A stretch of DNA of 64,000 nt from an uncultured bacterium (GTDB lineage: Bacteria; Patescibacteriota; Gracilibacteria; Absconditabacterales; Absconditicoccaceae), in the NCBI GenBank assembly GCA_937862565.1, contig CALMFT010000032.1:3175-67174 (forward strand). The letters are read 5' to 3'. The notes under the pieces were generated by a model, which was not told where the DNA came from, ran no database searches, and was given only the letters and a program-made list of their open reading frames with translations. Shown one piece after another: positions 271-63,767 of this stretch (its first letter is position 1; every line of letters begins with the position of its first letter). The translations under genes and the position numbers were made by a program.

Positions 271-2418
271 ATGTTGAATGAAAAATATAACTATTGTTTT
301 CTAGATTTTGAAACTACTTGATTGAGTCACGAAAGAGATGATATTATCCAAGTAGGTTTGATCATTAGCAATCATCAATTGCAAATCCAAGAACATTTCA
401 CGAGCTTTATCAATCCTGGTTATGAAATTGAGAAGTTGAAGACTATTGTTTCCTATACCACAGGAATTACTACGGATCAAATTCAGTCAGGTATAAGTAT
501 TGAAGATTTCAAAAATCAGTTTATTTCTATTACTTCAAAGTTTGAAAAACCTCTCGTGTTTATTGGTCACAATGTAAACTTTGATATCAAATTTCTCAAT
601 AAGTACTTCAATGAAGATTCTACAAATTTTGGAGAGCTTTTCATAGATACTATGGAGCGATCTAAAGTTTTTATTCATTATCCGCCTAGTTTTAGTTTGG
701 ATATTCTCTATCCATTGGTAAGAGAACAGATGGGTGCGGGATATTTTCAATCTTTATCAAAAAAAGTAGATCTTGAAGATATTCAGAATCATGATGCTTT
801 ATCGGATTGCCTGATTTGTATAGGTATTATACAATATTGCCTGACTAAAATTCATTCTGTAACTGCAAGTTTTCCAATTGCTTCCAAGATTCTTGCTAAA
901 GCAGATATGTGGTTCTTAAGCCAAGAACATTATAAGAATGTTAGTACAAGTTCTGAAAAAGTTCCTCTTCTAGATTTTCCTAAAAAGCCACAATCTACCA
1001 ATATTGTAGATACGGAAGGAGATTTTGATAAATTTGCAAATGGCGCTAAACTCTATTATGGTAATCTTCCTCTCGAGCAAGTTATCAGAAAATCAACAGC
1101 TCTCGGGAAAACGATTATCTGTACCAACTCCAATCAAAAGCTCAATATTATAAAAACAAAGGCAAAAATAATGGGATTGCATGATATTAGTTTTATGAAA
1201 GAACAACAACAAGTAGATAAAAATAAACTGAATAAGGTATTTAGCAAGGAGAAGCTGGAACTTACTGAAGTATGGTTTTTCATCAAATATTGTTCTCACA
1301 AACTGCAAGGATTGGGCTTATTGGATCTCAATACGCCTATGGATTATAAGATATACAACTATATTAGAGAGGATGTTAAAACCTCAAAATCTTCATTGAT
1401 TTTAGCGACTCATGCTGCTTTGTTTTCTCTTTTGGAATCATGAGAGTATGCAGATTATAAAATATTATTCTTGGATTATGAACGACGATATACTTCTTAT
1501 ATCAAATATAAAAGTACTGCTTGGGATCCGGTTAATTTTGCAAGAGTATTGGATAACTATCTTTATAAATTTACACACGATGAAGAGAATGAAAAAAGAG
1601 AATTCATTCAAGTGCTGGTAAGTAAGGTAGACATGTTCTGCTCATTTTTATTCATGGAGACGAGTAAATATATTATTAATGTAAAACAAGATGGGCAGGG
1701 GAAGCATGATTTGTGAGTAATAGAAGGAAAAAATGAATTTTCTAAATCTCTGAGTCTGTATGAATCAATTGGAATTTTATTTGAAGAGAAAAAAGAGATT
1801 CTTTCTCCAGAAGATAGCCTGATTATTCACAATCAAATTGAAAAGATAAAACTTACTATCGAAAATATTAGCTATGCTAGACTCAACTCTTATTCAGAAT
1901 ATATTCAATATACCTACGCACTCAGTAATAACTACGTAGATTATAGTGAGTTTATGCATCTATTTAAAGATCGTCATTATTACTTCCTTTCCAATCGGAA
2001 TACTACTTTTGAAATATTGGAAGAAAAATTAGATTCTATACACTGAGAAAACAGATCTGATGTTGTTGAAATAGAGAAAGTGGAAGAACTTGATAGTTTG
2101 AAAATCCAAGATACTGTGTTTATTCTCAATAATAATCCCACCAAAGCAAAGAAGATATTTGAGCATCTGCAAGGAGAACAAACATCCAAAACTCATAAAA
2201 TCCTTGTAGAGAATGTTACAGGCGGAAGAGGCAAAAATATCAGTATGGTTAAAAGAAATAATCAGTGGATATTGGTAGGGGGTTATGATCTGATTCTGCA
2301 ATGTATCCATGAGAGAATATATCCTCAGAAGATTGTGATATTTGAAACTCTGGGTCTATTACACCAACAAATTATTAGTGATATCACCTATCGAATGAAA
2401 CAAGGAGTTCACAATTAA
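271..2418 (+). CDS. DnaQ-like 3'-5' exonuclease domain fused to a DinG-like C-terminal region
   Basis: Track pieces 322-1443, 1471-1716 and 2080-2418 share one frame and join through in-frame TGA. The N-terminus FLDFETT[TGA]LSHERDDIIQVG matches the DEDD ExoI motif DxETTGL, and HDALSD is ExoIII-like. The C-terminal ~450 aa are only weakly helicase-like. Stop TAA at 2416. Confidence 0.55.
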
Positions 2419-2498
2419 TAGTATTTGATTTTTTATCTAGGATGCTTATTATGCCTAATAATTAATCTCTCATCAGTTTATATTTCATATTCCTCACC

Positions 2499-3392
2499 AT
2501 GAAGCTTCAAATAGATATTCCTCAAAGATATGCAAAACAAAGAGCACATACTGCTACTCATATTTTACATAGTGAATTAGCGAGTATTTTTCCTCAAACA
2601 AAACAAGCTGGATCACTCGTGGATGAAGATATGCTAAGATTTGATTTTTACGCAGATAGATTATTGGATGAAGATGAAATAAGCAGAATAGAACAACATA
2701 TCAATGCAGTAATTTATGAAGGACATGAAGTAGTGGTGCAAGAAATGAAAAAAACTGATGCTGAAAATCTAGGAGCAAAGATGTTTTTTGAAGATAAATA
2801 CGGAGACATAGTAAGAGTAGTACAGATCAAAGATTATAAAAGTATTGAATTGTGTGGGGGAACACACGTGGCTAATACCAAAGAAATCTGATCATGTATT
2901 ATAATCTGACAACAGGCGGTGGCAAGTGGTATCAAAAGAATCACAGCATATACAGGGCCAAAATGCTTACTCGCACTTCAAGAAAAAAATGCAGTACTCA
3001 AACTTGTAGCAGACAAACTCTCATGTAAGGTTCCTCAGATTGAGGAAAGAATTGAAAAAACTCTCAAGGAACTCAAAGATAGTAAAATCGCCATTGGCAT
3101 GATTCAAGATAATTTAATAGGAGGTTTAAAATTTGAAAAAATAACTAAAGATAATATCTCATACAATCACTGTATTATAGATTCTGATACACTTTTCGGA
3201 ATCTTCTTGAGTCCAAGTATCCTTACAGAAGCACTCAACAAATCGAAAGCTGATCGACCAGAAAACTATGTCTTCCAGTTTGATCAAGGATTCTTGATTT
3301 ATTCTAACCCAGGACAAGCAAAGCTTTTGATGCAAGCTTTCGGATGGAAGGGTGGTGGTAATGAGCAACTCTGCCAAGGTAAGATCTCATAA
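2499..3392 (+). CDS. stand-alone alanyl-tRNA editing protein (AlaX-L-like: editing plus C-Ala-like domains)
   Basis: HTATHILH and CGGTHV are the HxxxH/CxxxH zinc motifs of the AlaRS/AlaX editing domain. Pieces 2499-2891 and 2919-3392 are in the same frame, joined through TGA at 2889. No aminoacylation domain lies upstream. Confidence 0.65.
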
Positions 3393-3630: not shown

Positions 3631-4584
3631 ATGATTAAGAAAATACTCATCCATTCCTATCTTCAGATTATTAATAATGGTAGATTAACAAAACTTATCT
3701 TGTTCACTCTTTTTGCACATAGTTTTATTTTTGTACTCACGATTCTTTACAATGTTTATTTTTACGTGGAGAATGAATTTACGCTCAACACATCAAGTGA
3801 GGTTATCAACTATATTTTCAATTTATTAAACTTTGATAACATAGGTATTACAGCTGTAATCGTGTTGATAGTTCTTTTCCTATGATACTTTGTAATTGGT
3901 CCGATTGGTGAGTGCGCTATTGTACATTATCTTCATCACAAACATAAACTTTCTCAGTCTCTGGCATTTGGATTCAATAACTTCCATCATGTTGCAAAAT
4001 TTGAAGGAATGACTTTTGTTTTCAATATTGTGATGTTTTTAAATATCTTGAGTAAAGTTTTTATCTATGAAATGGATAATAGCTTCGTATTGAGCCTTAT
4101 GTTTCTATGGTTTTTGATGGTAGTTTTTGTGACTTTCTTCTTTCAGTATACCAAGACCATCATTCTTATAGAAGAAATTCCTGTGTTTGATGCTATAAAA
4201 AAATCTATGCGTTTGAGCGTAGAAAATATTTGAACAACTGTAAAGCTAGTAGGTATTAGTTTGATTTTCAGTATGAGGCTGATTTTTAATATTCTATTTA
4301 TAGTCTGAATTCCGCTCGCTGCAATCTTCTTATTGCAAATGTTTAATATAGTGGGGTGATTCGCCGATGGTTTGGTCTACTTTATCTTCTTTAGTTTACT
4401 GCTTTTCCTAGCATACGTGAATACACTTATTGAATGATATTTCAGAGTATTTTGGTACCTTGCGTATCAGTATATTATGGGCAATGAAGATCAGCTCCAC
4501 AAACTTGGGCTGTATAATTCTCCATCGGGAGGTTTATTTGACGATCAAGATCTAGAACAAGCTCAGGAAAAAGATTTTAACTAA
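3631..4584 (+). CDS. integral membrane protein, unknown function
   Basis: Pieces 3631-3885 and 4009-4233 plus downstream sequence share a frame through several TGA codons. Multiple hydrophobic segments. Stop TAA at 4582. Confidence 0.5.
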
Positions 4585-7619: not shown

Positions 7620-8816
7620 TTATATATTTATACATTCTTTGTAAAGAGTTAGAGTAGTGTTTATTTCAACTCACTTATCAAATAATTTTACTCTTTGCGT
7701 TCATGCATTCTTTAACTCTTCTTGTATATCAACATTTTTACTTACTCCTTGAATCAACTCACTCATATTTTCAATACTATTAGGATCAAAATAAAGTGCT
7801 GCACCAGCACCAACTTCGAGAAAAACATTGATATGTGAGCATACTACTGCACATTTTCCAGCCCACGCCTCCAAGATTGGTATCCCAAATCCTTCTGCCA
7901 AACTAGGATATACAAAACAAGCCGCTTTCTCAAATAAGTAATATTTTAATGATTCATCGCCGCTCATTTGGTGAATAAAGTTCTCAATATTTAGCTCCTT
8001 ATGCAGATTCTTTTCACTTTCACTGAAACTTTCATGACCAAGACAAATACACTGTAACTCTTCTCCCAAGAGGGGAGCAACTGCTTGCACAAAAGCTTTA
8101 AAGTTCTTATAATCAGCAGCCCTTTTCCCAATAAAGAGCATAAATTTCTTTATATTGAGCTTCTCAAGCAGATTATCAGTTTCTTGTTTATGAATACTTT
8201 CGTTTTGTAATTGAGAAATATGAGAGATATCTACAGAATGATAGATTACTTTTATCTTATTTTCATCCAGAGTAGGGTAGTATTGCAAGAGATCGCTCTT
8301 TGTTTTTTTGGAAACACATATGATGGAGTTTGCTTTTTCTCATAAGGATTGAATGCCATGTTCAGCATAGTCACACAATTGGAGATTGAGGAAACCAGAT
8401 TTGAGATTTTGAGTCTTATGATTGAGGTCATAGACATTGAATACAAAAGGGATATTCTTCTTCTTAAGGATATCTATGAGATAAGGATCGAACAAGGTAA
8501 TGTGCACAAGATCTACTCCCTCAAGGATTTTATCCACATTATTCAAAAATCTATATTTATTGCACCAAAAAACTAAGTTTTGTCTGCCTTTGAAAGGCGT
8601 ATCTTTAAGAAAAGTCGATACGTTTCTTTTTTCTGATCATAAAATATCTATCCCAGTCTTGAGAGTTTGTAGCAGATAATAGTTGTGAGTTCGCCATACA
8701 GGAACTATTACTTCATGCCCTTCCTGCACAAGATGAGTCATGAGTTCTGTGTAGTATTTGCTCATCCCTCCCATTACCTCAAGAGAAAAAACTTGATGAT
8801 CAAAAAGTATTTTCAT
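7620..8816 (-). CDS. glycosyltransferase family 1 (GT4-type)
   Basis: Pieces 7701-8288, 8340-8546 and 8637-8894 share one frame. MKILFDHQVF...GG(M)SKYY at the N-terminus and YPSLAEGFGIPILEAWAGKCAVV (the E-x7-E region) are typical of GT4. I chose the start MKILF at 8816. Confidence 0.7.
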
Positions 8817-8917
8817 AAGATCTAATAAATAATCTGAATAATGGCTTAAATTACTAGTATTTACTATATAAAATGACATTCCAATTACAATCAAAATTAT
8901 TATACTAAGCTCATATT

Positions 8918-10341: not shown

Positions 10342-11526
10342 TTGGACAACTGTTATGGCTCTCTAGCCCAAAAGAAGCTTGATAAGCAGATCATGAGAAT
10401 CGCTGAAAGATCAGATATTCTCAAATTTCTTGATCCTACAAATAAGTTTGAAGAACTTCAAAAATTTATAGACGCAAAAGGGGATTACAATCCTCAGTTC
10501 ACATACAGTACAGACCATGTAAAAATACTCGAGGAAGTAGGTTTATATATCAACAAACTCAAAGCTAAAACTCTCAAACTCAGGGAAAACAATGAAATCA
10601 AACAACTCATGCTCGACAAGTGCGATGAGATTTTGTGTAAGTTTGATCTTTTACAAGCCTACCACGATCAAGATTATGATGCTATTCTTACTCTCAATAC
10701 TCAACTTTTCGGAACAATAAAAAACTACACTACACTTCCTACAGATTATGCAGCGCTCGAAAAGCGTTTCTGATTATCTTATCAATCATTATTTGAAAAT
10801 ACTGGAATAAACCCTGTAGAGACTTTGAGTCAAAAACAAGTTAAGGAATTAGTGATCTATCATATTCAATCAGTAGGATTTAGTTCCTATAGTATACAAT
10901 TTGGGAACTTTGGTAATACTAACATGCAAGTAAGAATTGGTCCTAAACCTGTAATGTACATCCACAAGAAGGAAACCTACAAAGCCTTTGATGTGTGTGT
11001 GAGTATCTTACATGAAGTATACGGCCATCTTGCTAGATATAAGAATGGAATCAATTCAGACTATCATATCCTCCAATGAGGTACTGCTTATTACCTGAGT
11101 ACGGAAGAAGGATTGGCTGTGTTTCAAGCTGCCAGAGTAGAATGATTTCAGAAAACTCGAGAAAGATTACAAAAATCTTACCAATACTTAGCTCAAACAG
11201 CTGATCATAACTGGAAACAACTTACTCAGATCTATTTTAAGAACGGTCGAACTAATCTGGAAACTATATTTTGGAGTATACTCAGACTCAAAAGAGGTAT
11301 ACAAGATACGAGTATTATCCATCCTGGGACAGTTTTTTACAAGGATAAGGTTTATAGTGATGGATATTATCACATTCTCTCCTATTTTGCCGATCAAGTC
11401 AATAATAATGATTTGAAGTGAAACTCTTCTACTAAGCTCGCTTTGGATGATATTATTATGATCTGAAGGATAAAAGTGGAGGATATCCAAAAAATCCCTT
11501 GTATTTTGGGTGCAAGTCAACTATAA
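10342..11526 (+). CDS. DUF1704 / QEGLA-motif (MATCAP-like) putative metallocarboxypeptidase
   Basis: Pieces 10342-10773 and 10825-11079 plus downstream sequence share a frame. ILHEVYGHLARY (HExxxH) and TEEGLAVF (QEGLA-like motif) are present. The start is uncertain (TTG at 10342 or ATG at 10393). TAA at 11524. Confidence 0.55.
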
Positions 11527-11799: not shown

Positions 11800-11915
11800 T
11801 TATAGCTAATTACCCTCTTAGCCTATATATGCTGAGTTTACTAAGAATGTGTTGAAATTAACTCCTATTAATATAATAGTAAAAGTATCATCTTCGTTGA
11901 TGTTACTAATTATTG

Positions 11916-12046: not shown

Positions 12047-12074
12047 ATTGTTTAAATAATTAAATAATCTGATG

Positions 12075-14388: not shown

Positions 14389-14493
14389 AAGGATTAATAT
14401 AACAATATAAATGATAACTTCCTATTATGGTATATTTTTTATTTTAAAATAAAAGTATTTTTTGCACTTTTTGGGCAGATTATAGTACTATTT

Positions 14494-15390
14494 TTAATTC
14501 ATAAGATCATGAATTCCTTTGAGGTATTTATCATCCACGTGAGTATAAATTTGGGTAGTGGTAATACTACTGTGACCTAACAAAGTCTGTACTGACCTAA
14601 TGTCTGCGCCTTTCTTGATGAGTGTGGTTGCAAAACTATGCCTGAGAGTATGAGGTGTTACTTTCTTATCAATAGATTGCAACTTTGCATAATGCCTTAC
14701 CATATCTTCGATAGCATTGCGTGAAAGTGGCTTATTACCTGCAAATGATTTCTGATTATTAGAAATTCCAGAGAAGATGTACTCCCCTTCTCAGATTCTG
14801 ATAGCCAACCAAGCTTGTAAGGCTTCCAAAGCAGATTTAGTCATGAATACAGCTCTGAGTTTTCTACCTTTACCTACTACTGAGAATTGATTTGAATCTA
14901 CTTGAATGTCTGTAAGTTTGAGGTTACAAAGCTCTGAAACTCTCAGTCAAGAACCGTAAAGTATCTGTATGATGGCATTATCTCTAATTCTTTTTTTAGC
15001 AGCTTTTTCTCGTTCATCAGGAGCTTGGAGAATCTTTTCGATTTCTTCATCATTGAGAAAATGAACCTCTCTAGGAGGGGTTTTACTAATTTCTAGCTTA
15101 TCAGGCGAAATACAAGGAATATCATGTCTGATACAGAACTTCAAGAAAGCTCTGATAGCGATAATATGATAGTTGATAGTCTTTATATTGAGATGAAGAT
15201 CATCAATGAGATGTTTACGATAGTCCATAATCTGCATAGGATGTATACTATTTACATCTATATCTCCAACAAAACCTAAAAACCTTCTCAACCACAAGCT
15301 ATAATTGCTAATGGTATTGGGACTTGCATTCTTGGTATTTCCCAAATAAGAAATATACAGTTCAATTAACTTTGCAAGGGTTGTACTCAT
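14494..15390 (-). CDS. tyrosine site-specific recombinase, XerC/XerD-like
   Basis: Pieces 14947-15390 and 14494-14703 share a frame. YGS[TGA]LRVSEL (box I Arg), HTLRHSFAT and [15 protein letters not shown] (catalytic Tyr) are present. Confidence 0.85.
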
Positions 15391-17220: not shown

Positions 17221-17373
17221 AGGGTTAATATCGTATTATAAGGGCAAAACTATATATAGTATCATACTCAATATGCCTCCCAAATCAAGAAGGAAACTCT
17301 TTTCTTAAAAATACTTGACAATAATCTGATTATAAGTATTAAATGATCCTCCAAATACAAATACGGAGATATT

Positions 17374-18750: not shown

Positions 18751-19446
18751 TTACGCAACATACAAATATAAATCTCCAATCATGCTTTGGAAGGCAACTT
18801 TTTTAACACTACGTTTGAGGTTTTTACATATCCAATCAAATACTAGACCTCATCAAATATCTCTGGACTCATCTTGCTCTTCATCACCTATGACAATCAC
18901 CGCCATCTTATTTTTCTTCAAGAAAATGGAAAGGTTATTTTGATAGTCATTATTAGCTTCAAGACTACTTTTCAACCCTTCCACGCTGATTTTCAGAATA
19001 TAGAAATTTTTTAATGCACTGATAATCTGAGAGACGCATACCAAAGTATCTACTTTAAATTCAGATTGATAGTCTTCACTATTTTTATCTTTACTTACAG
19101 AAACTAAAGAACTAACGGCAAATGGAGATTGTAGTTTAGCTGCATTGATATTTTTATAATCTGAATAAACTGTATCGTAATCGCAGCTTATTATGCAGAT
19201 ACTGTCATAACCTTGTTGAAGCAGTAAAGAAAGATAGAGTATAATAAATCGTACATCCAATACATCACCTGAAAGTGCCAAATATCCTAATTGAAGTTTA
19301 TCTTTATGAATTTTGGCTAACTTTGGCATTTTTATTTTTTGTGCTTCTTGAACTGACTGAAGTACAGCTTCATGAAAATCCCTAGGATCGGTATACCGTT
19401 CAGGAAAATCTATATAATGAGTATTCTGATTATCTTTTTTATCCAT
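18751..19446 (-). CDS. hypothetical protein
   Basis: The piece 18853-19446 is extended through TGA to TAA at 18751. It ends 4 nt before the synthase start, which suggests an operon. Confidence 0.4.
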
Positions 19447-27200: not shown

Positions 27201-27216
27201 TTAATGGAAATTCAGA

Positions 27217-29772: not shown

Positions 29773-29916
29773 AGCAAATAATCTGTATAATTAAATGGGT
29801 TAAACGGTTTGATAAGCTCAATAGATAATTATTATATTTGATTTTGCAAAAGCTTATAGACTGATAAATGCACTATCTATTTACAAATAAATTTTTGAAA
29901 TGGTTTTATTTTGTAT

Positions 29917-35481: not shown

Positions 35482-35514
35482 AGCACTAATGAGGAGTAAT
35501 AAAAATATCACTCA

Positions 35515-41380: not shown

Positions 41381-41435
41381 CCTTTGATGTATACAGTAGA
41401 TAATTGTGAGAATAAAATAATCTGAATAAAGTTGG

Positions 41436-42147: not shown

Positions 42148-42149
42148 CA

Positions 42150-46144: not shown

Positions 46145-46215
46145 AAGAGAAGCTTGTATATAAGTACTCTATTTACAATAATCTAGCTCTAAAATCAAGA
46201 CTCTTTTCAGATTAT

Positions 46216-49200: not shown

Positions 49201-52200
49201 ATTTACTGTAGGATCAAAGTTGAAAATTTGATTTTCTGTCCCGCTTAATAAATCATCAACCGCAACTGGTTTACAAACCACAAGCACATCTACTGTGCCT
49301 GTATTGGACAAAAAGGTTCAATCAGTCACTCGGTACTTGAAAGTATCCAGACCACAAAATCAAGAATTTGGAGTATATTCAATACCGGTTCAAATTACTG
49401 TCAAAGTTCAGCCACTTCAAGCTATAAATCAAGAAATAGATAAGGTATCCCCAACATTGTAATCAAAATCATTATTTAATACTTTTATTATGGAGCTTTG
49501 AGTTGATCAAATTGTTACATTGTCATTTATGGCGACAGGAGCAACATTAACAAGAGCACATGATTTAATGCTATTGCTTGTCGTGAATCCTGTAACTAAA
49601 ACTGGTGTTGGTCTATTGATAAGGGTGCCGTCACCAATTTCTCCGTAAGTATTTCTTCCTCGGCAAGCCAATTGTCAGTCAGAGGTTACGCCACAAGTAT
49701 GAAGAGTTCCTACGCTTATCTTAGAAAAACGAAGAGTAGTATTTACAGAGACAAGACCAGTGCTACTCAATGCCGTGCCACCTCCAAGCTGATTATTGGT
49801 TCATAATCCTCGACAATATGCTTTTCAAGTTTTTGTAAGAGCACAGGTATAATTATTTCATGCCTGTATATCCATAATGCCTGTTAAACCTAGAACAGAA
49901 GTAGATACTGGACTTGTTTGAGTAATAGTATTACCATTTCATAAAGCTCCATTGGTATTTGCTCATCGACATTTTGCGGTGCCATTGTTTAGCAATACAC
50001 AACTATGTGTGTTTCATACAGATAAAGAAATTGCATTGTTTATTCCAGTGACCTGCGTAGGTAAAGCATTGGATGCGGTTACAGGAGTTCCATCACCTCT
50101 CATTCAGTTAGCATCACTACCCTGACATCGAACAGTGCCACTAAAAGTAAGAGCACACGCAAAAGCTGAACCAGCTTGGACTTTTTTTATCATTCCAATT
50201 CAAGTGAAAACGTCTATAGGTATTCATGTATCGGCTGCTGTATTCTGTCTAATTATATAGTTTGCTCCTTCTCACCAGCATTTTGCAGCACCATTGTTAA
50301 AAATACCACAAAAAGTCTGAGATAATGAGCTAGAAGAAAGATCAAAAATATTGTTCCCAGATACTATACCTACAGGTGTTGACTTTACAACATTGGTGTT
50401 ATCTCAAAGCTGTCTGTTAGCATTATATCACCAAGACTTACCTATTCCACTATTCGAAATGGCAACACTAGAACGATAATTCATAGCTATTTCAAAAATT
50501 CATGACGTCAGACCAATTGTCTGAGTAGGTACCGATTTGGATGTAGATCAGCCATCTCCGATAGCAGGATATGCTGCAGTTTCATATCATCGACATTTTG
50601 TACTTCAAGATGAAGTAATTGCACAAGTATTATATTGTGCGAGACTTACGCTATCGATTTCTTTACAGTCATTGTAAGTGTTTTCACAAGGAACATATAC
50701 CTGTATTGATCCTGTGTTAGATATAAATCAGCTTTTATAAAGTATTTTATAATTAAAATTGTCAGTGCCACAGAATCAAATATTTGGAGTGTAAGTAATT
50801 AATCATTGATTGTTGTAAGTAATGTTACCATTTGAAGGTCATACAATTCAGGTGAAAATAATATTTCCAGAAATAGCTGATATATTACCTGATTTCACAA
50901 TCTGCAAGGTTGTTGCTGTGTTTTGATGAGTATAGATATAATCATTAAAAACATAACCAGATAATATAGGCGGAGTATAGTTAGTATTTCTAGCCCAAAG
51001 ATTAAACGGTCTAATTTGAGCTTGGTTAAATTTTAAAGTTGCAGATGATCATGGAATCCAATAAGCTCAGTTCGCATTACCACAGAGTTGGACTATAGCA
51101 TTATTGAGTCTCGGTACTGCAGTGTTACAGGTTGCTCATACAAAACTAGTCATAATTGCTGCTGCGCCAGTCCATGCAGCATTATCCAAAAGTCATCTAT
51201 GTACTGGTGCATAATTACGAAAGTTTGTCAGAACAGTGGGATTAGTAGTCGTTACAGACCATCAACTATTTGTCTCATTTATCATGAGTTGACTGAGATC
51301 AAATTGACTAGTCACTCAAGATGATATTATTTTATCAGATTGCAAAGTCATTCATGTGACTATACCATATACAACCCCGGTCCCATTTAAATTATTCTCT
51401 GAAGCAACCAATAGCCATCATCCTGGAATTACTATACTATCAAAACTCTTACCGCTAAGATTGAAATAATATGTTCAAGTTGTTGTTACTCAAGAAGCAG
51501 CATACAGTGAGGTAAATGGATTTCCTAAACTACCATCTCCAAAGAATGAAGGAAAGTATGAAAAAGTAAAAGTAGAAGCGCCACAGGTATAAAATGTAAT
51601 TTTATGATTCAATACTTTTACACTATCTATCTGGTCTACTGAGCTTACTGATCAATTTTGATTACAGTTGGCTTCAGGATTGGCAGTTAATCAAACTATA
51701 CCAGGATCTGATTCTCACTCATGTTGTACTTTTAGATCTACAACCGCTCCTTCCATACCTTCATCAACATCAAAATTGATTATTACTGGTTTTGAGAATA
51801 TAAGATGTTCACCCTCAATACCAAATTCAAAACTATAAGAAAACGCACTATCAATTTGATCAGAGTTTAGTTTAATTAATACATCTTTTGTTAATTTTAA
51901 TGCTTTCAAATCAACTGCTTCATCCAATTGAGATTCTTCAATATTAATACCAAATTTTTCAAGCTCAAGTTTATTTGTACTTTTGGTATCAATTTCTAAA
52001 TCTCAAGGTAATGTTATAGATAAATGTTCATCATCGCTAGACAATTCAATTTCCTTATTTGTATGAAGCGAATCAATATCATTTTTTTGAACTGATCAAT
52101 CTTTAGAATACTTTATTAAATCTCACTTAATTTGTTTAATAAACTGCTTACTATCTATTTTCACCTTATATTCTCAGATTATTTTTAATTGTTCATTATT

Positions 52201-53106
52201 TTTCAAATACTGTTCTCTATACTCATCTAGACTAAGTTTATTTTTACTTACTATACGCACTCCATCAACTACATATCGTTTGTCATCATCTCACTTTAAA
52301 ATTGTAAATCTATGTCCTTGATATGCAATTTCCTTATATTTAGCCTCTTTAAAAGCTATAATATCAAAAACAGTATTATCATTTTTATTATAACTTTCAT
52401 CCAATGCAGAAATAAATTTTTCAGGGTTTTCTTTTACTGAATCATAATTTACTAAATCAGTATATTGAGCCCAAAGATCTATCGCATCTCATCTGGGTAT
52501 ATTTTTTAATCAAGTTACTTTACTAATATACAAATATGTATCATATGAACAAAAAGTCATAGAATTATTTTCCCTATAAGTTCTGAATGGAAATACAGAC
52601 GATAGATTAACTTTCCCATTTTCATCAAAACGTGTATTTATAAATGGTTTGATGGTAACTATCTTTCAAGAAATTTCTTCATCTGTTCATGAAATGGATC
52701 AAAATTCTCATATGCTTTCTTCACTTATTCAGTCATTATTATTAGTTTTACTATCATTTTCACTTCAAGTTTGTGTCATTTGAAAATTATATAATACTCA
52801 AATTCACTGATTTACTTGATTCAAGATTTCTCAATTCATCAATACACTTTCTGAGTTTATTTTTGTTTCTTCACTTGTCTTAATTTTATCTCACAAGTTT
52901 TCTGATTGTTGCTCAAGTTGTGAATCAAATAGCGCTCAAGATGGCTCAGTTGTTTTTTGTATATCAGAAAAACTATTTTGCTGTTTATATGCTTCTATCT
53001 CAGCATCATTTAAATATATATCTAAATAATCTGAAAAAATAGGAGTATAATTGAAACAGTTTATCGTAAACAAAAAAACAAACATAAAGTTGAGTTTCTT
53101 GAACAT
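46216..53106 (-). CDS. giant secreted surface protein (2296 aa): signal peptide, ~900-aa N-terminal region without recognised domains, RCC1-like repeats, cadherin-like/Ig-like domains
   Basis: I translated it codon by codon in one frame from ATG at 53106 (MFKKLNFMFVFLFTINC...) to TAA at 46216, with no TAA/TAG and more than 100 in-frame TGA codons. The RCC1-like repeats (about 49600-50650) read C[W/CGA]G.N..GQLGDG....P. At least 5 modules read NDxxDP.G....GT...YTP..GFCG.D.F.Y.V.D...SNTG.V.I.V.C. Only track ORF 51715-51927 overlaps it. Confidence 0.75.
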
Positions 53107-53338: not shown

Positions 53339-54610
53339 TTATGATTTTACCGAAGTTTGATGGATCCCGATTGTTTCATTTCCAAGTTTTACAGTAATAA
53401 CATCATCTCCAACTTTATCGCCATACAAAATTACTGTTTTTTCTCCTCATTCTACATAATCTATAAGTCCTCCTCCTATTCAGACTATCTTATTTTTACT
53501 AACAAAAGATAGCTCTTTATTTAGGTAACCTTCATATGGTTTACCATCTTTACTTACCGCGATAGTAATATACGCTTTACCTTCATAAGCTATTGATTCC
53601 TTCTCATCTCTTTGTAAATCAACAATTTTAATTACATACGGACTTTCATCAATTTCAAATATTTTCTGATTTATGATACGATCCGCATTTTTTTGAGCAG
53701 TTGCGACGTAGATCAAAGGTTGTGGATTCTGTTTAACTTCAACAGGAATATCTTGTTTTGTAGTAAGATCTTTATTTATCTCTTTTACTTCTTTTGTGGG
53801 TTCAGAAGGTTTAGTACTGTTTGTGGAAGCTAAAAGAGCACTTCAGATTATTGCTTATTTTTTGGCAACTGCTGCTCTCGCTATCTCCATAGATTTGTCT
53901 AAATTTCAATTCAATTCTATAAATAAAATCGGATCAATGGTATTTTTTGCTAAAAGATCTCTACATACACCATTTTGAACAGCACTCATATATCCTGATT
54001 TACAATCAGAATATGCATATGGATAATTTTTTTGCTTAGTAGTAGTAATAGCAAAATCAAGATGATAACCAAATGGTCAGATCGTGAAACCTGATTTACC
54101 AACTTCTCCAATGAGTTGTTTTTCTTTTACTGTATCACCTTTTTGTATTAATATTTTACTCAAATGAGAGTAGGAGCTCCATATTTTTTTACCGTTTCAT
54201 AAATCATGTTCTACAGTCACAGAATTTCCATATCCTGCTAATTCTCCAGCAAATATTACTTTACCTTCTCAAATAGCAGTAACAGGAGTACCTTCGGCAG
54301 TAGCAATATCAGTGCTAGGCGCACCACCATTATTGAGATCCCAGCCATCATTGTATGAACCACCCCAAATATCAGAATAGATTACTTGCGTGTTCCAATC
54401 CTTAGCATAATTCGCATAATTTGCTTGCGCTATAATAGGTAAATTCATCTTACAATCATCATTGAGCGTAGACCAATTTACTGATTTACATTCAGCTCTA
54501 GGCTTTGTAACTTGATCAAGAGGGTAACTCCAACCTTGCGAAACTGAAGTTCCTACAAGTAAGGCTACAGCACAAGACAATACAACTGTTTTCTTAAATC
54601 ATAATACCAT
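53339..54610 (-). CDS. secreted M23/LytM-family peptidoglycan metalloendopeptidase
   Basis: Pieces 54269-54580 and 53480-53716 share a frame. A signal peptide is present, as are DIATAEGTPVTAI[TGA]EGKV...YGNSVTVEH...SYSHLS...GEVGKSGFTI[TGA]PFGYHLDF (the HxxxD/HxH-type M23 motifs). Confidence 0.8.
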
Positions 54611-54754: not shown

Positions 54755-56146
54755 ATGAAAAGACATTCTTGCAAATCTAATCGATGAGAAAATGAAGTAC
54801 TTGGTGAGGTAGATTTAACTTCTCCAGAAGAACTTATTTCGATTCTCAAAAAATCTAAAAAGGCATTTACAATATGGTCGACAGTTAGTACATGAGAAAG
54901 AGTTCAGACTATTTCATCTTTTTTGGAAATATACAAGGATAATGCTTCAAAATTGGCGATAAATATCTCCAAAGAAATAGGAAAACCATTGTCGCAAGCC
55001 ATGAGTGATATAGATTATGATATTGCATACTTACAACGACATATTGATAATGCAGAAAAAATACTCGACTGTGAGATAGTATTTGAAGATGATACGAGCA
55101 AACATATCCAGTATTTTGAGCCAAAAGGAGTTGCAGCAGTCATTTCTCCACGAAATTTTCCAAGTTCTCAATTTATATGGCAGGTCATTCCTCCACTCTT
55201 AGCTGGTAACACTATTATTTATAAACCTGCTTCCGCTTGTATGCGATCAGCTAAGTTGATAAGTGATTTATTGATATCAGTTTTACCGACCAATACATTT
55301 CAATTGGTACTCGGAGATTCTGAATTGGGTAATAGTCTGGTGCAATTGGAAACAGATATGACAATATTTACAGGATCAAGCGATGTTGGTCACAAAATAT
55401 CTAACATAAACGGAAACTCCATGAAACCTTCTTATCTAGAGCTATGAGGAAACGCTCCTGGTATAGTATTATCTGACGCAATCATAGATAATCAGATGAT
55501 GAATACACTTGATCAGTTTAGAATACAGCATTCAGGACAAATCTGCGATGGGCTGAAAAGACTGTTTGTCCATAGATCAAGATATCATGAGCTTATAGAT
55601 AAGATTAAAATTACATTTTCTGATTATAATATAGGAAATCCTTTAGATAAGAATACTCATATTGGATGCCTCATCAATACTACTGCTTATGATAAGATTC
55701 AAAAATCTTTGGATGATGTCAGTATGCAGTGAGTAGATATAATATCCTTATGAAAATATGATAATACTGTTGGTCCATTTATTCCTTTTGCATTATTATT
55801 AAATCCTGAAAATAATGATGTCTTGAGTAAAAGTGTATTTATGATGGAGGAAATATTTGCTCCTATTCTTCCTATCATTGCGTTTGACACTATAGAAGAG
55901 GCTATACAAATGGCAAATGATAGTAAATTTGGTTTGGGATGATATGTTCGATGATCAGATAATCAGATTATTAATTCACTTTGCAAACAACTACGTACAT
56001 GAAATATCAATATAAATAACACAAATTATGTATTACCTCAGATACCTTTTGGCGGATACACGAGGATGTCAGGTAATTTTAGAGAGCATGGAAAGACAGG
56101 ATTGAGAGATTATACAGAAACCAAAATCCTTAGTATGCCAAAATAA
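54755..56146 (+). CDS. NAD(P)-dependent aldehyde dehydrogenase
   Basis: Pieces 54923-55447 and 55496-55732 share a frame. ISP[CGA]NFP (consensus PWNFP), LEL[TGA]GNAP (ELGGNAP), the catalytic GQICDG, EEIFAPIL and FGLG[TGA]YV are present. Confidence 0.85.
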
Positions 56147-58016: not shown

Positions 58017-58955
58017 TTACTTAATCCACTCTTTCAAAGATTCTCTGATTTTCTTTATCTTAGGGTCAATCACAATCTGACAATAAGGTTTGCTGCTATT
58101 CTGATTATAAAAATCTTGATGATATCCTTCTGCTATCCAGAAATTTTCAGCAGCTTTGATGTGAGTAACAATAGCCTCTTCATAGGTATCTTTATTGAGT
58201 TGAGTTACTTTTGTATCAATAGTTTTCTTTTGTTCAGGAGTGGTATAGAAAATCACTGATCTATATTGTTCACCGCTATCACCGCCCTGTTTATCCATAC
58301 TTGTAGGATCGTGACTAATGAAAAATCCATCCAATAAGATATCTAATGGAATAATCTGAGGATTGTAAGTGACTTGAACTACTTCTATATGTCCAGAAAC
58401 TCCAGTACTCACCTGCTCATAACTAGGATATTCTCTTTTCCCGCCCATATATCCAGATTTTACCTCTATTACTCCTAGAAATTGTTGGAATACTGCTTCA
58501 ATACACCAGAAACATCCACCTCAAAAGTAAATAGTTTCACGTGGAGCGTGTAGATCTTGAGCAATTGGGTTAGCTTCAAAAAACTCTTTTTCCTTTTCTT
58601 GAGCTACAAATCTCATGCTCAGAGAGTTTACACAATGACGTGTATTTTGTTCCGTCATGCGTTCTCCCACAAACACGTGTCCAAGATGACCTTCACAGTT
58701 GTGGCAAGTAATCTCCGTTCTATGACCATCTTTATCCGTAGTCCAATCTACTGCTCCAGGGATTGCTTGATCAAAGCTTGGTCGCCCACATCCACTGTCA
58801 AACTTGCTTCCACTATTATACAAGGGAGCATTACATCTACGACATATGAAAATTCCTTCTCTTTTTTCATTCAAGAGTTCTCCTGTTCCTGCACGTTCTG
58901 TACCTTTATCACGAATAATATGTTCTTCTTCCTCTGTGAGTTTATTTCGAGTCAT
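58017..58955 (-). CDS. msrAB: bifunctional methionine sulfoxide reductase MsrB-MsrA fusion
   Basis: Pieces 58521-58955 (MsrB: CxxC...CG[CGA]PSF...RHCVNS) and 58017-58448 (MsrA: [TGA]GGCFWCIE...GYHQDFY) share a frame, joined by TGA at 58521. Confidence 0.85.
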
Positions 58956-59010
58956 AGTATATCTGTAAGAAAATAAATATATCTAGTAACTCAATAATCA
59001 GATTATATTT

Positions 59011-60168
59011 TTATTTTACAAGTGGTTTTTTCATATCAAATACTACTTTTTCTCCTTTACTTACTTTCTCATACCCGAGCTGACCACAGGCTCCTTTGAT
59101 TTTACGTCCACGATTGATACGTGCTGTTACAGTCAATCAAGCACTTTCCAAGATATCTCTAAATTTGAGAATAGACTCTGTAGAAGATTCTTCAAGGTCT
59201 GGCATAGCAGGATTGGGATTGTAAGGAATAAGATTGACATGTGCGCTACGATCTTGGAGTAATCTTCCTAGTTCGTATGCCAAATCTGGGGAGTCTGTCA
59301 TATCTTTGATCATGATGTATTCATAGAAAATTCTGTTTCCCGTAGCATCTGTGTATCTATCTATTGCTGCCATTAGCTTCTCTAAGGTATAATTTTTGGC
59401 AATAGTAGGAATAAGTTTTTCTCTAAGACCTTGATTTGGAGCATGTAAACTCAGAGCCAACGCACAATCAATACCATCTTCTATCAGTTTATCAATACCT
59501 GGAATAATACCTGAAGTACTAATCGTCACATGCCTTTTACCTAGGCTGAGATATTCTTGTTTGAGCATAAAATCGAGACTTGTTTTAACATTATCATAAT
59601 TGAGTAATGGTTCTCCCATACCCATAAATACTACATTTCTAATCTTTCGCCAAGTACCATCTTCTTTCTTACCAAGTTTTGTCTTCAGATAATTATTCAC
59701 CCAGATTATCTGAGCTATCATCTCAGAATACGATAGATTTTTTCAAAATCCAAGCTTTCCTGTTACACAAAAGATACATCCTACCGGACATCCCACTTGA
59801 GAACTAATACAAATAGTCACTCTGTTGAGGTATTTTACCTTTTCTGGTTTTCCTTCGACTTCTTTCTTGTGATAATGATACATCACTACTGTTTCTAAGA
59901 TACTTCAATTGGATAATCTGAATCCTATTTTTGTACTTTCTGGGTTTTCATGTACGCTATCTACTTCAAAAGGCAATATCTCAAATTCTTCTGATAATTT
60001 ATTTCTCAAATCGATCGATAAGGTTGTCATTTCTTGGAAATCAATAACAGAATTCGTAAAAATCTCTGTAAGTATCTGTTTTTGACGAAACGATGGAAGT
60101 TTTTCTTCCTTCATCCAAGCTACCAATGCTTCTTGATCAAATATTGATTTTTTTACTTTTAGGTCCAA
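59011..60168 (-). CDS. rlmN: 23S rRNA/tRNA adenine-C2 methyltransferase RlmN (radical SAM)
   Basis: Pieces 59905-60168 and 59137-59721 share a frame. SFRQKQI, the cluster motif [23 protein letters not shown] and the C-terminus GACGQL are present. TTG start at 60168. Confidence 0.85.
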
Positions 60169-60290: not shown

Positions 60291-61532
60291 ATGTTTAAAA
60301 AAATTTTGCTGACCATCGGGATTATTTGAGCTTGTTTCTCTTTCAGCTCTCTTGCAAAAGCTTATACTCTATGATTATACTCTCAGTCAAAAACAGTTCA
60401 AGAAGTCAAAGATGTTGAAGATAAAATTTCTCCATATACCTTACAAGTTTCAGCATTTATTTTTGATAGATATAGTGGCCAAGGAAGTAATGCAATTAAA
60501 GAAATTGTGAATAAACTAGGAACATGAAATAGGATATATCATATTACTCTTTCTCCAGATCATCTCACTGCTATTCAAGTTGCGTCAGGATATTTTGATG
60601 ATGAATATAAAGCATTTTTTGAAGATATAAAAAAATATAAGATAAAAGTAATTTTTCGTACTATGCATGAGATGAATGGAGGTTGGTACGCACGATGAAG
60701 TGACCCAACTTCATTCAAAAAAGCATGGAAAAGGATATACGCGCTTTCTAGGAAGGTCGGACTCGACAAATCCAATATCCAATTTGATTTTTCTTTCAAT
60801 CGACATGATATGCCATTAGATCGAAGTAAAGTTTCAGACACTAATGGATATGTACCAAATCAATCTAGTCCGCTTATTACTTGCAATTTAGAACAAAAAG
60901 AAAAAACAAACTGTCTTACTCGAGAAGATTATTATCCAGGTTATCAATATGTAGATATAATCTGATTTTCAGTATATAATTGGTGAAAAGCTACTAGCAA
61001 TCGTCAATGGCTGAGCTTTAAAGATATTATTTTTGATAGTGCTCGAAATAATCGAGCAAGAATACTTACCATAAAGAAACCAATTTATATTGACGAGGTA
61101 GGGACTACGGCAATCTATTACAATCAATTTTTCAATTGGTTAAAATCTCAAAAAATGTTTACATCTGCGAAAGACGATAAGAGTAAATGGCTGAGCGATC
61201 TTGCAGAATTTATTGATAATACCCCTGAGGTAATAGGTTTAAACTATTTCAATGTGGATTATACTTACTGACTTTTGCAGCACATTATGGGAGAAGCAGA
61301 TTGGAAAATTATTGATCCAGAAAAATGAATTTTGTATGATGGAGTTCATGAACTTCTGAAAAGAAATGACAACCTCGATGCAAGTTTATTATTTGAAACG
61401 GTAAAAAAACCGAGCCCTACTAAAAATACTACAAATAAACCAACAACAAAAACTAGCAATCTTAATACTGGGTCAACTACTACTATAAAAACAGGCACAA
61501 CAATAAGAAAAATACTAACCTTACCTTATTAA
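60291..61532 (+). CDS. secreted GH26-like glycoside hydrolase
   Basis: A signal peptide is present. FRTMHEMNGGWYA[CGA][TGA]SDP corresponds to the GH26 motif HEMNG.W..WG. The C-terminal tail is Thr/Lys-rich. Only track ORF 61332-61532 overlaps it. Confidence 0.6.
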
Positions 61533-63217
61533 TCTTTAGTTAAATATCTGAATATTTTTTCTTTATTATTTCTTTTTGGGGCATCTTCCAAAACCCGTAC
61601 AAACGCTTTTTTGATTAATACTCATACTTCAGGAGAAGGAGATAATTCGAAGCGTTTCATAATATCGTCACCATTCACAAGCATCTTATCGATAGTAAAC
61701 TGACCTTCAGAATTTTTGAGATCATCAAGAATCTCGTACAGAGCATTTACATTATCAATTTGAGGTTTTTGAACTGGATTGTAGTGACCAGCGCGGTCCC
61801 CTCTCGTAATATCAAATAGATTGAACACTTGCTCATAGCCTACTTCAGAATATAGTTCTCTTATTTTTTTCTTCCAAGAATCTGATTTTGACATCAATAT
61901 TTCTCCAGGCTTCATATGATTTTTGATATACCACTTTATTTCAGAAATTTCTTTATTTGTAAATCCTATTCTCAATAAATCTTCTTCCGCAAGATCCTGG
62001 CCACAGTTAACATGGTTGAGCCAACCTGAATAGATAAAAGGTCTTTCTTCTTCTCCGAGATTAAAACTATGAGAGTGATATTGTTCTAATTTACCACAAT
62101 CGTGATAGAGCATAGCCATTCTCACGAGGTAGTTTTCATTGATGGTCTGTAAGAAATTGAGAGCCAACAAACTATGAGTGTAGACATCAAATGGATGATA
62201 TCTCACAGGTTGAGGTAGATATTTTATAGCATGAATTGCTGGAAACAAAGACTTGAGTAAGTTGAGTTCATCAAGAATTGCGATATAAGCAAATGGATTT
62301 GGTCCAGAAAATACTTTTTTGAGTTCATCGTGAATACGTTCTTTGCTGAGATTTTTTACAAGAAAATAATGTTTTTTCATACTCTTCCAAGTATTTTTTT
62401 CGTAATCAAAATCAGTATCTAGAAGACTATCAAAGTTTAGCGTATTTTGAAATCTTACTGCTCTGAGTATTCTGAGAGCATCTTCAGTAAATCTGAGATC
62501 AGGCTTGCCTACTGCTCTAATCTTACCATCTACGATATCTTGAATTCATAAATAAGGATCTCGAATGATTCAGATTATTTTTTCTAATTCTATTTTTTGT
62601 TCTTTACAAAATTTCTCAAATTCATTTTTATCTAAGTTACCTTTTGGTAATAAGATATCAATAACTTGATGATCTTGCAGAAGAAGAATACAGTCTATCA
62701 CTATAAATTTATGATCTTTGAGATATTGTAAGATGTATTCATCAGTATGTGTATTTTTTGAAATTACTTTTTTGTCAGATTGTTGTAATTGAGTATAATA
62801 TAGAGCATTAATGGTAAAATCTCTTCTTCCTGCGTCTAATACAAGACTATCAGACCGTTGTATCTCATCCGGATGACGCGAATCAGTATAAGAACCTTCT
62901 TCACGGAAAGGAGTAATCTCATAGTAGAGTGAGCTTTCAGGGTTCTTCTTAACAATAGTAATCGTACCAAATTTTTCTGTACGAAACAATGAAACATCTT
63001 CTAGTTTATCTTTCTTGACTTTGGCGTTGAGAGTACTTCGTAGATCGTCTGGATCAGCACACATAGTGAGGTCTACGTCTATAATATCTTTATTTTTTCA
63101 GATTATACAATCTCTTACTACACCTCCAACAATGAAAAAATCCTTCAATCCCATGGTTTCTTCTAGAAAATGGATATGAGAGTCTAATTGGGTAAGTGTG
63201 ATGAAATTAAGATGCAT
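61529..63217 (-). CDS. cca: CCA-adding enzyme / tRNA nucleotidyltransferase with HD domain
   Basis: Pieces 63098-63313, 62570-63064 and 61622-62380 share one frame. FIVGGVVRD, GRRDFTINALYY, FTEDALRILRAVRF and HD (LYHDCGK) are present. The start is uncertain (ATG at 63217 or the Met of MGLKDF near 63165). Confidence 0.8.
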
Positions 63218-63767
63218 GATTGAGGGTTTGAGTAATTTCGATTCCGTACTGTTTTTGTTTCTCTTCTCGACGTTCTTTGAGTACAGGTTGTTTAAGATAA
63301 TCTGTAAATTCACTTTCCATCATATGCTGAGTAGTTCTATCTTTGAGCGCTGGGTGTTCCAAATCACTACCATAACTCTTATATAATGCCATCCCTCTAT
63401 AAGTTTTATATCGTTTTATAATCTGATATTGTTCTTCTTTTGTAAAGTCTTCATTTTCAAGAAAATATAATTCACAGGCTGCTTTATATATTTTAAGTTT
63501 TTCAAATTCGTTATTGATAGGCCTATTATATTCATTTACTATCTTATTTACTCCATATATTACTTTCATAATTTTTGTAAAATATTCAGGAGAGTTTTTA
63601 TATTCAAAATATCCTAATACTTTCATAAGATCAAGAATATATTTTCTTTCTTCATAGTCTCGTTTTTTAAAGTTCTCATGTGTTACTTTATTATTAGTTT
63701 GATTCCTCAATAATATATTTTCTGCTTTTTTCTGAGTTTCTTCTCGTGATTGATTCAGTATGTCCAT
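63207..63767 (-). CDS. hypothetical protein (186 aa)
   Basis: Intact ORF with a TAA stop that overlaps the cca start by 11 nt. Confidence 0.45.
   Translation of the reverse strand: MDILNQSREETQKKAENILLRNQTNNKVTHENFKKRDYEERKYILDLMKVLGYFEYKNSPEYFTKIMKVIYGVNKIVNEYNRPINNEFEKLKIYKAACELYFLENEDFTKEEQYQIIKRYKTYRGMALYKSYGSDLEHPALKDRTTQHMMESEFTDYLKQPVLKERREEKQKQYGIEITQTLNHAS

Follow-up and report, generated by a model that had tools for sequence, protein, structure and literature searches.

A 9-nt DNA word conserved in code-25 Absconditabacteria is a candidate DNA uptake signal

The uptake signal sequences (USS) of the Pasteurellaceae are built on a 9-nt core that recurs about 0.7–1 times per kb, lies mostly within genes in frames that encode tolerable peptides, is strand-symmetric and is evenly scattered. 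These and the DNA uptake sequences (DUS) of the Neisseriaceae are enriched in intergenic DNA, avoid frames that contain a stop codon and exist as dialects around an invariant CTG core (PMC3630211; bioRxiv 10.1101/2025.10.24.684340), and sequence-specific uptake has been documented in just these two proteobacterial families (PMC3630211; bioRxiv 10.1101/2025.10.24.684340). Here we describe the word ATAATCTGA, found in a 64-kb stretch of an uncultured bacterium of the Absconditabacterales (contig CALMFT010000032.1, positions 3,175 to 67,174; the whole stretch is called the window below). Because its statistics, its DNA-level nature and its distribution among clades match those of DUS and USS, we consider it fairly probable that ATAATCTGA is a DNA uptake signal functionally analogous to them, in one clade of the code-25 Absconditabacteria (SR1).

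The initial annotation had counted 50 copies of the 8-mer core in the window, 26 and 24 on the two strands, of which 38 carry the full 9-mer, and a recount gave the same figures. The start positions it gave were right as well, apart from 62570 on the minus strand, which is the start of a 9-mer whose 8-mer begins at 62571. In dinucleotide-preserving shuffles the 8-mer ATAATCTG/CAGATTAT appeared 5.8 ± 2.2 times (maximum 15) against the 50 observed (26 plus, 24 minus), and the 9-mer 2.1 ± 1.4 times against 38; an order-4 simulation yielded the 9-mer 4.4 times (maximum 10). An unbiased k-mer scan ranked the word and its extensions first at k = 7–12 under order-1 and order-3 Markov nulls, with 26 copies of the extension AATAATCTGA (about one expected) and eight of AAATAATCTGAA (0.1 expected). 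The maximal-order Markov null is uninformative because sub-words are enriched too; it was set aside, and orders 1–4 and codon shuffles were used. The word is also sharply bounded, its one-mismatch variants having 0–16 window copies each. From position −14 to +23 the flanks hold 0–0.3 bits per position, with A favoured at position 9 and immediately ahead of the word, and no similarity of the dispersed-repeat kind (repetitive extragenic palindromes or miniature inverted-repeat transposable elements) extends beyond the core in the flanks of the window copies. As the flanks are uninformative, what is enriched is a short word rather than a repeat family. The word is non-palindromic; a near-palindromic extension, ATAATCTGATTAT, occurs in 4 of the 38 9-mer copies and was rejected as a defining trait, being a minority feature. 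The second most enriched word of the window, GAATGACGTCATTC, was discarded, as it is simply the DNA of a protein repeat in the gene g21.

The window uses genetic code 25, in which TGA encodes glycine. Coverage by long open reading frames (ORFs; ≥150 aa) rises from 39% under table 11 to 91% with TGA as a sense codon, there is no comparable gain in the window when TAG or TAA is freed instead, and every fetched relative shows a similar rise once TGA is sense. When Obg is aligned with Bacillus subtilis Obg (1lnz), in-frame TGA falls on glycine at five of six positions and on tryptophan at none. Table-11 gene calls were dropped since TGA proved to be a sense codon, and the genes used here are our own code-25 ORF calls, amended from database calls where these existed; four of our ORFs (g29, g30, g34 and g35) were spurious, the true features being LigA and two tRNAs.

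Under this corrected annotation 41 of the window copies (82%) lie within genes and nine are non-coding or overlap a stop codon. The 14 sense copies encode I-I-G/W (9) or x-N-L (5), and the 27 antisense copies lie opposite Q-I-[I/M] (17), x-D-Y (7) or x-R-L (3). All five stop-free combinations of frame and orientation are thereby occupied, and the sixth (A-TAA) is used once only, as the stop codon of gyrA (27212–27220). The initial annotation had reported several frames, both orientations, copies abutting stop codons and PilB and PilC in the window, all of which hold on reannotation. Shuffling synonymous codons within genes, which preserves proteins and codon usage gene by gene, left 18.3 ± 2.8 8-mers including about 10 unshuffled non-coding ones, so that about 8 coding copies are expected where about 40 are seen. 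Pooled over five species of the clade to which the window belongs (clade A, defined below), the same shuffle predicts 2.2 sense 9-mers against 24 observed and 5.0 antisense against 38, an enrichment of about 8–11-fold each; since the fold is similar in both orientations, the raw excess of antisense copies reflects background. Neither the higher-order nor the codon-aware null thus predicts the count.

The choice among synonymous codons shows the same thing directly. CAG-ATT is used in 17 of 22 Q-I-[I/M] tripeptides (2.6 expected, p = 3e-12), yet CAA makes up 74% of glutamine codons, and ATA-ATC-TGA is used in 9 of 15 I-I-G tripeptides (0.25 expected, p = 4e-13). The QII tripeptide is itself in 3.3-fold excess (20 against 6.0 expected by amino-acid composition). 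The signal acts on the DNA word rather than on protein, as the initial annotation had proposed. We also considered whether codon-pair bias, a context effect of the recoded TGA or a dispersed repeat family could produce such a pattern, given that the genome is AT-rich, that TGA encodes glycine and that the word ends in TGA. The TGA of the word is, however, read as a codon in just 15 of 62 pooled clade-A coding copies, so it is not a recoding-context signal. The codon-aware null gives about fivefold fewer coding copies than observed, two thirds of the coding copies are antisense, the flanks are dissimilar, the word is not restricted to one repeat family, TCTGA alone is unenriched and other code-25 clades lack the word. 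A compositional or coding artefact is effectively refuted by these observations, and we give it next to no credence.

Along the window the spacing of copies is Poisson-like (coefficient of variation 0.97; largest gap 5.6 kb, 5.7 kb expected). Five pairs lie within 150 nt against 5.4 expected, showing no clustering, and the orientations of neighbours are random. The density is twofold higher in non-coding than in coding DNA of the window (1.47 and 0.72 per kb), and 31% of the copies pooled over clade A fall in the approximately 10% of sequence that is non-coding. Non-coding copies stand at both 5′ and 3′ gene ends and in both orientations, with no fixed distance to starts or stops. The strands are balanced at 26:24 in the window and at 43 plus to 47 minus over clade A, and local GC skew places 38 of the pooled copies on the G-rich and 52 on the C-rich strand (p = 0.17; replichores from GC skew only), so the check for strand or replichore skew revealed no significant polarity.

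This symmetry bears on Chi and on the FtsK-orienting polar sequences (KOPS), which the initial annotation had listed as alternatives alongside a nucleoid-protein site and a methylation-related word. Chi sites are over-represented 5–8-mers that vary with lineage. The word is likewise an over-represented, lineage-specific 8–9-mer within genes, but Chi and KOPS are strongly skewed to the leading strand and co-orient with replication, whereas the word has no skew by strand, gene or GC skew, and its density of about 1 per kb exceeds that of typical Chi; a polar signal is disfavoured. An intracellular marker of self DNA that needs no polarity is possible. In such a Chi-like role a helicase–nuclease would read the word and switch from degradation to RecA loading, so that kin DNA is marked and food DNA is degraded. 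Genes for a PIF1/RecD-like helicase and a RecX-like protein are present in the window, and a self-marker would benefit Absconditabacteria if, as has been proposed (PMC8080830), they take up and degrade the DNA of their hosts. The DNA examined yielded no RecBCD or AddAB genes, and with the lack of polarity and the high density we regard a Chi-like function as unlikely.

To place the word among relatives, 13–23 kb per relative was compared with the 64 kb of this genome, several relatives overlapping regions syntenic with the window. The nearest named relatives by GyrA are metagenome-assembled genomes labelled Candidatus Absconditabacterales, candidate division SR1, Gracilibacteria and Peribacteria, and the GyrA homologs fall into five clades. 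The window and relatives with 88–66% GyrA identity make up clade A, which spans six species and a GC content of 30–40%. In four of the relatives ATAATCTGA is the top word found de novo (L021, 14 copies in 17 kb; L022, 14 in 21 kb; L023, 10 in 13 kb; L025, 14 in 22 kb), and it is also enriched in L034 (9 in 19 kb). Its density over the six species is 0.47–0.82 per kb, or 0.7–1.05 per kb when a G variant is included. L025 can be aligned with the window over 3.5 kb only, and most copies in L022 and L023 are at positions that the window does not share; as few positions are shared, these enrichments are independent. The word thus recurs in non-syntenic DNA of other species, and its enrichment is not confined to the window.

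Where orthologous DNA is available, window copies are conserved in L021 at 10 of 16 sites (0.38 of all 8-mers, p 0.04), in L022 at 4 of 9 (0.085, p 0.005) and in L023 at 3 of 5 (0.084, p 0.005), so that copies are kept above the average 8-mer rate, yet are turning over. A word that is clade-specific and conserved, with some copies near gene starts or ends, might be the site of an abundant DNA-binding protein that serves nucleoid organisation, chromosome segregation or global regulation. Against this, most copies are intragenic (82% in the window), their positions mostly differ across species, they keep no consistent distance or orientation to starts or stops, and they are randomly spaced. A genome has far fewer of the known chromosome-organising sites, which are palindromic or polar. 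A housekeeping role would also sit oddly with the lack of such a word in three intermediate clades, and we hold a binding-protein site to be quite improbable.

The word varies at its periphery. The G variant ATAAGCTGA is found eight times in the window (1.4 expected), four times in L021 (0.3), seven times in L022 (0.35) and 11 times in L034 (0.6), where it is about as common as the T form ATAATCTGA. Directly before the word, the window, L021 and L022 prefer A, and L023 and L034 prefer G. The full clade-A form is [A/G]ATAA[T>G]CTGA, its peripheral positions drifting by species around an invariant CTGA core.

A different and equally sharp word, AAAA[A/G/T]TCTGA, characterises clade D, whose GyrA is about 56% identical to that of the window and which is very abundant in ENA. 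L029 has 25 copies of this word in 22.6 kb, L030 has 10 in 13.8 kb and L031 has nine in 15.9 kb; 0.8–1.4 copies are expected at order 4, one-mismatch neighbours have 0–2 copies, and the density of the word in the three species is 0.56–1.11 per kb. Each clade's word is at background in the other clade. The shared TCTGA core was rejected as evidence by itself, since TCTGA is common (3–5 per kb) and enriched in no locus. Clades B, C and E (L026, L027, L028, L033 and L032) have no word of comparable strength. A near-palindrome, TGTC[A/T]GACA, is weakly enriched in L026 of clade B (5+5 copies in 22.5 kb), as is TCTGACT(T) in L027 and L028 of clade C, which is not reproduced in L033; TGTCWGACA and TCTGACT were rejected as dialects, being too weak and not seen in L033.

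Variation among clades would also arise if clades had different repair enzymes. Biased repair or gene conversion, in which intracellular sequence-specific repair turns near-cognate sites into the word, would make the word a by-product with no role in uptake, and would likewise force synonymous codons and yield a sharply defined word that is symmetric between strands, randomly spaced and present in all frames. Very-short-patch repair by Vsr/Dcm in E. coli is an analogue. The known cases, however, act on short palindromic methylation sites and the word is a non-palindrome of 9–10 nt, the window revealed neither a methyltransferase nor an endonuclease to match it, and biased repair predicts the doubled non-coding density no better than uptake drive does. 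We consider biased repair, too, an improbable source of the word.

Set beside the DUS of the Neisseriaceae, the word is likewise a short non-palindrome at about 1 per kb, equal in both orientations and present in coding and non-coding DNA with an excess in the latter. Both exclude stop-containing frames, both have dialects that vary peripherally around a core (CTGA here, CTG in Neisseriaceae), and both are accompanied by type IV pilus genes. Unlike the DUS, ATGCCGTCTGAA, the word ATAATCTGA resembles it only in the 3′ TCTGA(A), and TCTGA alone is unenriched here. Inverted-repeat pairs and a link to terminators, which cover about half of known DUS/USS, are absent, the host belongs to a code-25, monoderm lineage of the Patescibacteria, and there is no candidate resembling the minor pilin ComP, the DUS receptor. 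By its sequence and its host, the word does not belong to the Neisseriaceae DUS family (dialects of AT-GCCGTCTGAA, recognised by ComP), and any resemblance is at most convergent.

With the Pasteurellaceae USS the word shares the density of the 9-nt core, the intragenic location in tolerated frames, strand symmetry, an even scatter and the existence of two clade-specific types that differ at few positions, and molecular drive from biased uptake would explain either equally. The USS sequences themselves (AAGTGCGGT for the Hin type, ACAAGCGGT for the Apl type) are unrelated to ATAATCTGA, which is no member of the USS family either. The word differs further in lacking helically phased AT-rich flanking tracts, flank information being about zero save for the A/G before the word, and in lacking terminator pairs; for ComN/PpdA, the receptor predicted in Pasteurellaceae, there is no counterpart candidate here. 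HIP1 of cyanobacteria, GCGATCGC, is present at about 1 per kb genome-wide and in all frames, with its function debated, and is a palindrome with a methylation site. It is of similar octamer scale and density, but the word here is different and non-palindromic, so it does not share the palindromic trait of HIP1. Overall, in density, symmetry, scatter, codon override, clade conservation and dialects, the word matches the genomic signature of DUS and USS. The initial annotation had suggested this likeness from the window, and the conservation across clade A and the second, related word of another clade now support it.

If ATAATCTGA is an uptake signal, a surface receptor of the type IV pilus/Com machinery, for which a minor pilin or a ComEA-like protein is the most plausible candidate, would favour double-stranded DNA that bears the word in either orientation, and fragments from relatives would be imported and recombined more often. 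Through molecular drive, whether or not selection also favours transformation restricted to kin, this bias would fix copies where their cost is low. Such drive would lead to about 0.6–1 copy per kb, symmetry, random spacing, a non-coding excess, occupation of all stop-free frames, forced synonymous codons and mildly distorted peptides, and co-evolution of receptor and word would give the peripheral drift among species and the distinct word of clade D. Of this mechanism we infer the bias in uptake, the receptor and the driving role of recombination. PilB and PilC, both encoded in the window, are presumed to be part of the DNA-uptake machinery. ComEC, ComEA and many pilus genes have been reported in Vampirococcus, another member of the Absconditabacteria (PMC8080830), and comEC-dependent natural transformation has been demonstrated in Saccharibacteria, another lineage of the Patescibacteria (PMC10633639).

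Two unannotated repeat proteins are encoded directly downstream of PilC and PilB, g21 (22395–24230, minus strand) and g27 (31720–33885, minus strand). They share an N-terminal region and 3–5 copies of a module of about 75 aa that ends in AWYELLGK[IV]FD, and they are strain-variable, shorter proteins replacing them in other strains (L011, L002). Neither has a Pfam, PHROG or PDB sequence match. The AlphaFold2 (AF2) model is all-helical, with a predicted local distance difference test score (pLDDT) of 76 in the best model and 46–60 in the other four, and has no Foldseek match. The idea that g21 and g27 are a DNA-binding receptor was dropped for want of any sequence or structure match. Within g21 the palindrome (G)AATGACGTCATT(C) occurs at 22576–22587, 22888–22899 and 23167–23178, about 300 nt apart, and encodes the repeat …RMTSF….

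Several observations weigh against an uptake signal. No prepilin-type N-terminus was found among all window ORFs, which leaves no receptor candidate there, and ComEA, ComEC and DprA were seen in no fetched locus (the 64-kb window and 13–23 kb per relative). If, as proposed for Absconditabacteria (PMC8080830), DNA is taken up in bulk as a source of nucleotides, there is no obvious need for selectivity. The inverted pairs at terminators, which the initial annotation had named as something to check, are absent from the window; copies have no association with inverted repeats or terminators, and the folding energy of 61-nt segments is −6.8 kcal/mol at copies against −8.4 kcal/mol in random windows. 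Strain-variable segments hold 3 copies against 4.3 expected, a depletion that is not significant at a low power. Positional conservation may be due in part to protein constraint, since the same few sites recur. In clade D (L029, L030 and L031) the coding copies are 27 sense to 4 antisense, against 4.9:1.9 in codon shuffles, so that antisense copies are scarcely enriched, in contrast to clade A; this gene co-orientation could reflect A-rich sense strands, which are only a partial explanation, or a real strand preference. Finally, the evidence comes from only 13–64 kb of each genome, with replichores assigned by GC skew alone.

The window is ordinary chromosome, with gyrA, obg, sufB, ligA, xerC/D, an ABC-F ATPase, PilB (T2SSE), PilC (T2SSF), a 2297-aa surface protein and three tRNAs (Table 1). 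Conspecific DNA (93–99.9% nucleotide identity) is present in many ENA metagenome assemblies, in contigs of up to 324 kb. A naive code-25 gene caller places spurious ORFs across the tRNA-Glu/tRNA-Val pair. The use of TGA is uneven: it makes up 111 of 232 glycine codons (48%) in the surface protein, which has Big_9/cadherin repeats (46216–53106, minus strand), against 23% window-wide, and 15 of 29 in a secreted-looking 483-aa protein (19471–20919). Copies of the word stand 6–10 nt upstream of gyrA, at the expected position of a ribosome-binding site, in both the window (29778–29785) and L021 (9983), in opposite orientations. In L025, intergenic copies at 5044, 18450 and 19771 (also 8894 and 21821) centre a longer AT-rich inverted repeat, atataaaATAAT-CTG-ATTATctttatat, which may be a hairpin element built round the word; this hairpin context is not general among the window copies.

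Table 1. Copies of the word and selected other features of the window. For copies within genes, the orientation relative to the gene and the peptide encoded at the site are given.
Feature	Coordinates	Strand	Context
8-mer	1451..1458	-	DnaQ-like exonuclease fusion gene (271-2418 +), antisense, A-D-Y
9-mer	2901..2909	+	tRNA_SAD-domain gene (2499-3392 +), sense, I-I-G (TGA=Gly)
9-mer	3663..3671	-	membrane-protein gene (3631-4584 +), antisense, Q-I-I
8-mer	8169..8176	-	glycosyltransferase gene (7620-8879 -), sense, D-N-L
9-mer	8829..8837	+	glycosyltransferase gene (7620-8879 -), antisense, S-D-Y
8-mer	10742..10749	-	MATCAP-family gene (10393-11526 +), antisense, T-D-Y
9-mer	12064..12072	+	non-coding; 3 nt past stop of DUF134 gene (12075-12446 -), 76 nt after tRNA-Met
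8-mer	14476..14483	-	non-coding; 11 nt downstream of XerC/D-type integrase gene stop
8-mer	15227..15234	+	XerC/D-type integrase gene (14494-15390 -), antisense, Q-I-M
9-mer	15729..15737	-	Obg (15418-17220 -), sense, Y-N-L
9-mer	15902..15910	+	Obg (15418-17220 -), antisense, Q-I-I
9-mer	17192..17200	+	Obg (15418-17220 -), antisense, Q-I-I
9-mer	17321..17329	+	94-aa ORF (17250-17531 -), antisense, I-R-L
9-mer	19022..19030	+	232-aa hypothetical gene (18751-19446 -), antisense, Q-I-I
9-mer	19156..19164	+	232-aa hypothetical gene (18751-19446 -), antisense, S-D-Y
9-mer	20605..20613	-	483-aa hypothetical gene (19471-20919 -), sense, I-I-G
9-mer	25336..25344	+	PilC/T2SSF (24258-25352 -), antisense, Q-I-I
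9-mer	25726..25734	+	275-aa hypothetical gene (25384-26208 +), sense, I-I-G; kept in L021, L022
9-mer	27212..27220	-	internal TAA = gyrA stop codon (gyrA 27217-29772 -); sole way sixth frame usable
8-mer	29778..29785	+	non-coding; 6 nt upstream of gyrA start codon, antisense to gyrA
8-mer	30781..30788	-	ABC-F ATPase gene (29917-31707 -), sense, Y-N-L
9-mer	30806..30814	+	ABC-F ATPase gene (29917-31707 -), antisense, Q-I-I
9-mer	33758..33766	+	repeat protein g27 (31720-33885 -), antisense, Q-I-I
9-mer	35288..35296	+	PilB/T2SSE, antisense, Q-I-I; kept in L021, L022, L023
9-mer	35802..35810	+	NAD-dependent DNA ligase (35726-37018 +), sense, N-N-L
9-mer	36322..36330	-	NAD-dependent DNA ligase (35726-37018 +), antisense, Q-I-I; kept in L022, L023
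9-mer	36814..36822	-	NAD-dependent DNA ligase (35726-37018 +), antisense, Q-I-I
9-mer	37075..37083	-	radical-SAM gene (37046-38905 +), antisense, Q-I-I
9-mer	37727..37735	+	radical-SAM gene (37046-38905 +), sense, I-I-G; kept in L021, L022, L023
9-mer	38390..38398	-	radical-SAM gene (37046-38905 +), antisense, S-D-Y
9-mer	39345..39353	-	468-aa gene, weak UvrA_DNA-bind match (38957-40360 +), antisense, L-R-L
8-mer	39434..39441	-	468-aa gene (38957-40360 +), antisense, Q-I-I
9-mer	41417..41425	+	non-coding; 55-nt spacer between tRNA-Glu (41306-41380) and tRNA-Val (41436-41513)
9-mer	41966..41974	+	84-aa ORF (41899-42150 -), antisense, Q-I-I
8-mer	45191..45198	-	PIF1/RecD-like helicase gene (44390-46144 -), sense, D-N-L
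9-mer	46207..46215	-	non-coding; begins 1 nt after 2297-aa surface-protein gene stop
8-mer	46573..46580	+	giant surface-protein gene (46216-53106 -), antisense, T-D-Y
9-mer	52174..52182	-	giant surface-protein gene (46216-53106 -), sense, I-I-G
9-mer	53026..53034	+	giant surface-protein gene (46216-53106 -), antisense, S-D-Y
9-mer	53843..53851	-	non-coding; 4 nt after stop of gene 53855-54610 (-)
9-mer	55963..55971	-	gene 54755-56146 (+), antisense, Q-I-I
9-mer	58351..58359	+	gene 58017-58955 (-), antisense, Q-I-I
9-mer	58998..59006	-	non-coding; 5 nt after stop of gene 59011-60114 (-); palindromic extension ATAATCTGATTAT
8-mer	59702..59709	-	gene 59011-60114 (-), sense, I-I-W
9-mer	59913..59921	+	gene 59011-60114 (-), antisense, F-R-L
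9-mer	60957..60965	+	gene 60291-61532 (+), sense, I-I-G
9-mer	62570..62578	-	gene 61529-63373 (-), sense, I-I-G
9-mer	63098..63106	-	gene 61529-63373 (-), sense, I-I-G
8-mer	63297..63304	+	gene 61529-63373 (-), antisense, Q-I-I
9-mer	63418..63426	+	non-coding; 45 nt upstream of gene 61529-63373 (-) start
PilB-type pilus assembly ATPase (T2SSE)	33916..35511	-	531 aa by database call; own longer ORF to 35727
PilC-type platform protein (T2SSF)	24258..25352	-	
tRNA-Met(CAT)	11913-11988		
tRNA-Glu(TTC)	41306-41380		
tRNA-Val(TAC)	41436-41513		

Whether or not uptake is involved, a 9-mer that prevails over codon preference roughly every kilobase in six species demands an explanation. In the literature that could be searched, uptake sequences are not connected with Absconditabacteria, Gracilibacteria or Patescibacteria by any paper, and the word itself was found only in unrelated primers. 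We give about an even chance to the broader proposal that Absconditabacteria, as uncultured, genome-reduced epibionts or predators, independently evolved a system of uptake signals, of which there are at least two dialects, ATAA[T/G]CTGA and AAAA[A/G/T]TCTGA. It would have no precedent in Patescibacteria or anywhere else outside Proteobacteria. If so, it would be a third independent system, located in the candidate phyla radiation, and kin-biased transformation would be seen to evolve repeatedly and in very different envelopes. Two dialects together with wordless intermediate clades would constitute a natural experiment on the co-evolution of word and receptor, and their phyletic pattern could pinpoint the receptor. 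Adding the word to donor DNA would provide a practical route to transforming SR1 bacteria. For the organisms themselves, the tag would allow recognition and recombination of kin DNA in a cell thought to take in large amounts of foreign DNA as food, and it would offer a testable answer to how genome-reduced, DNA-scavenging epibionts confine genetic exchange to their own species.

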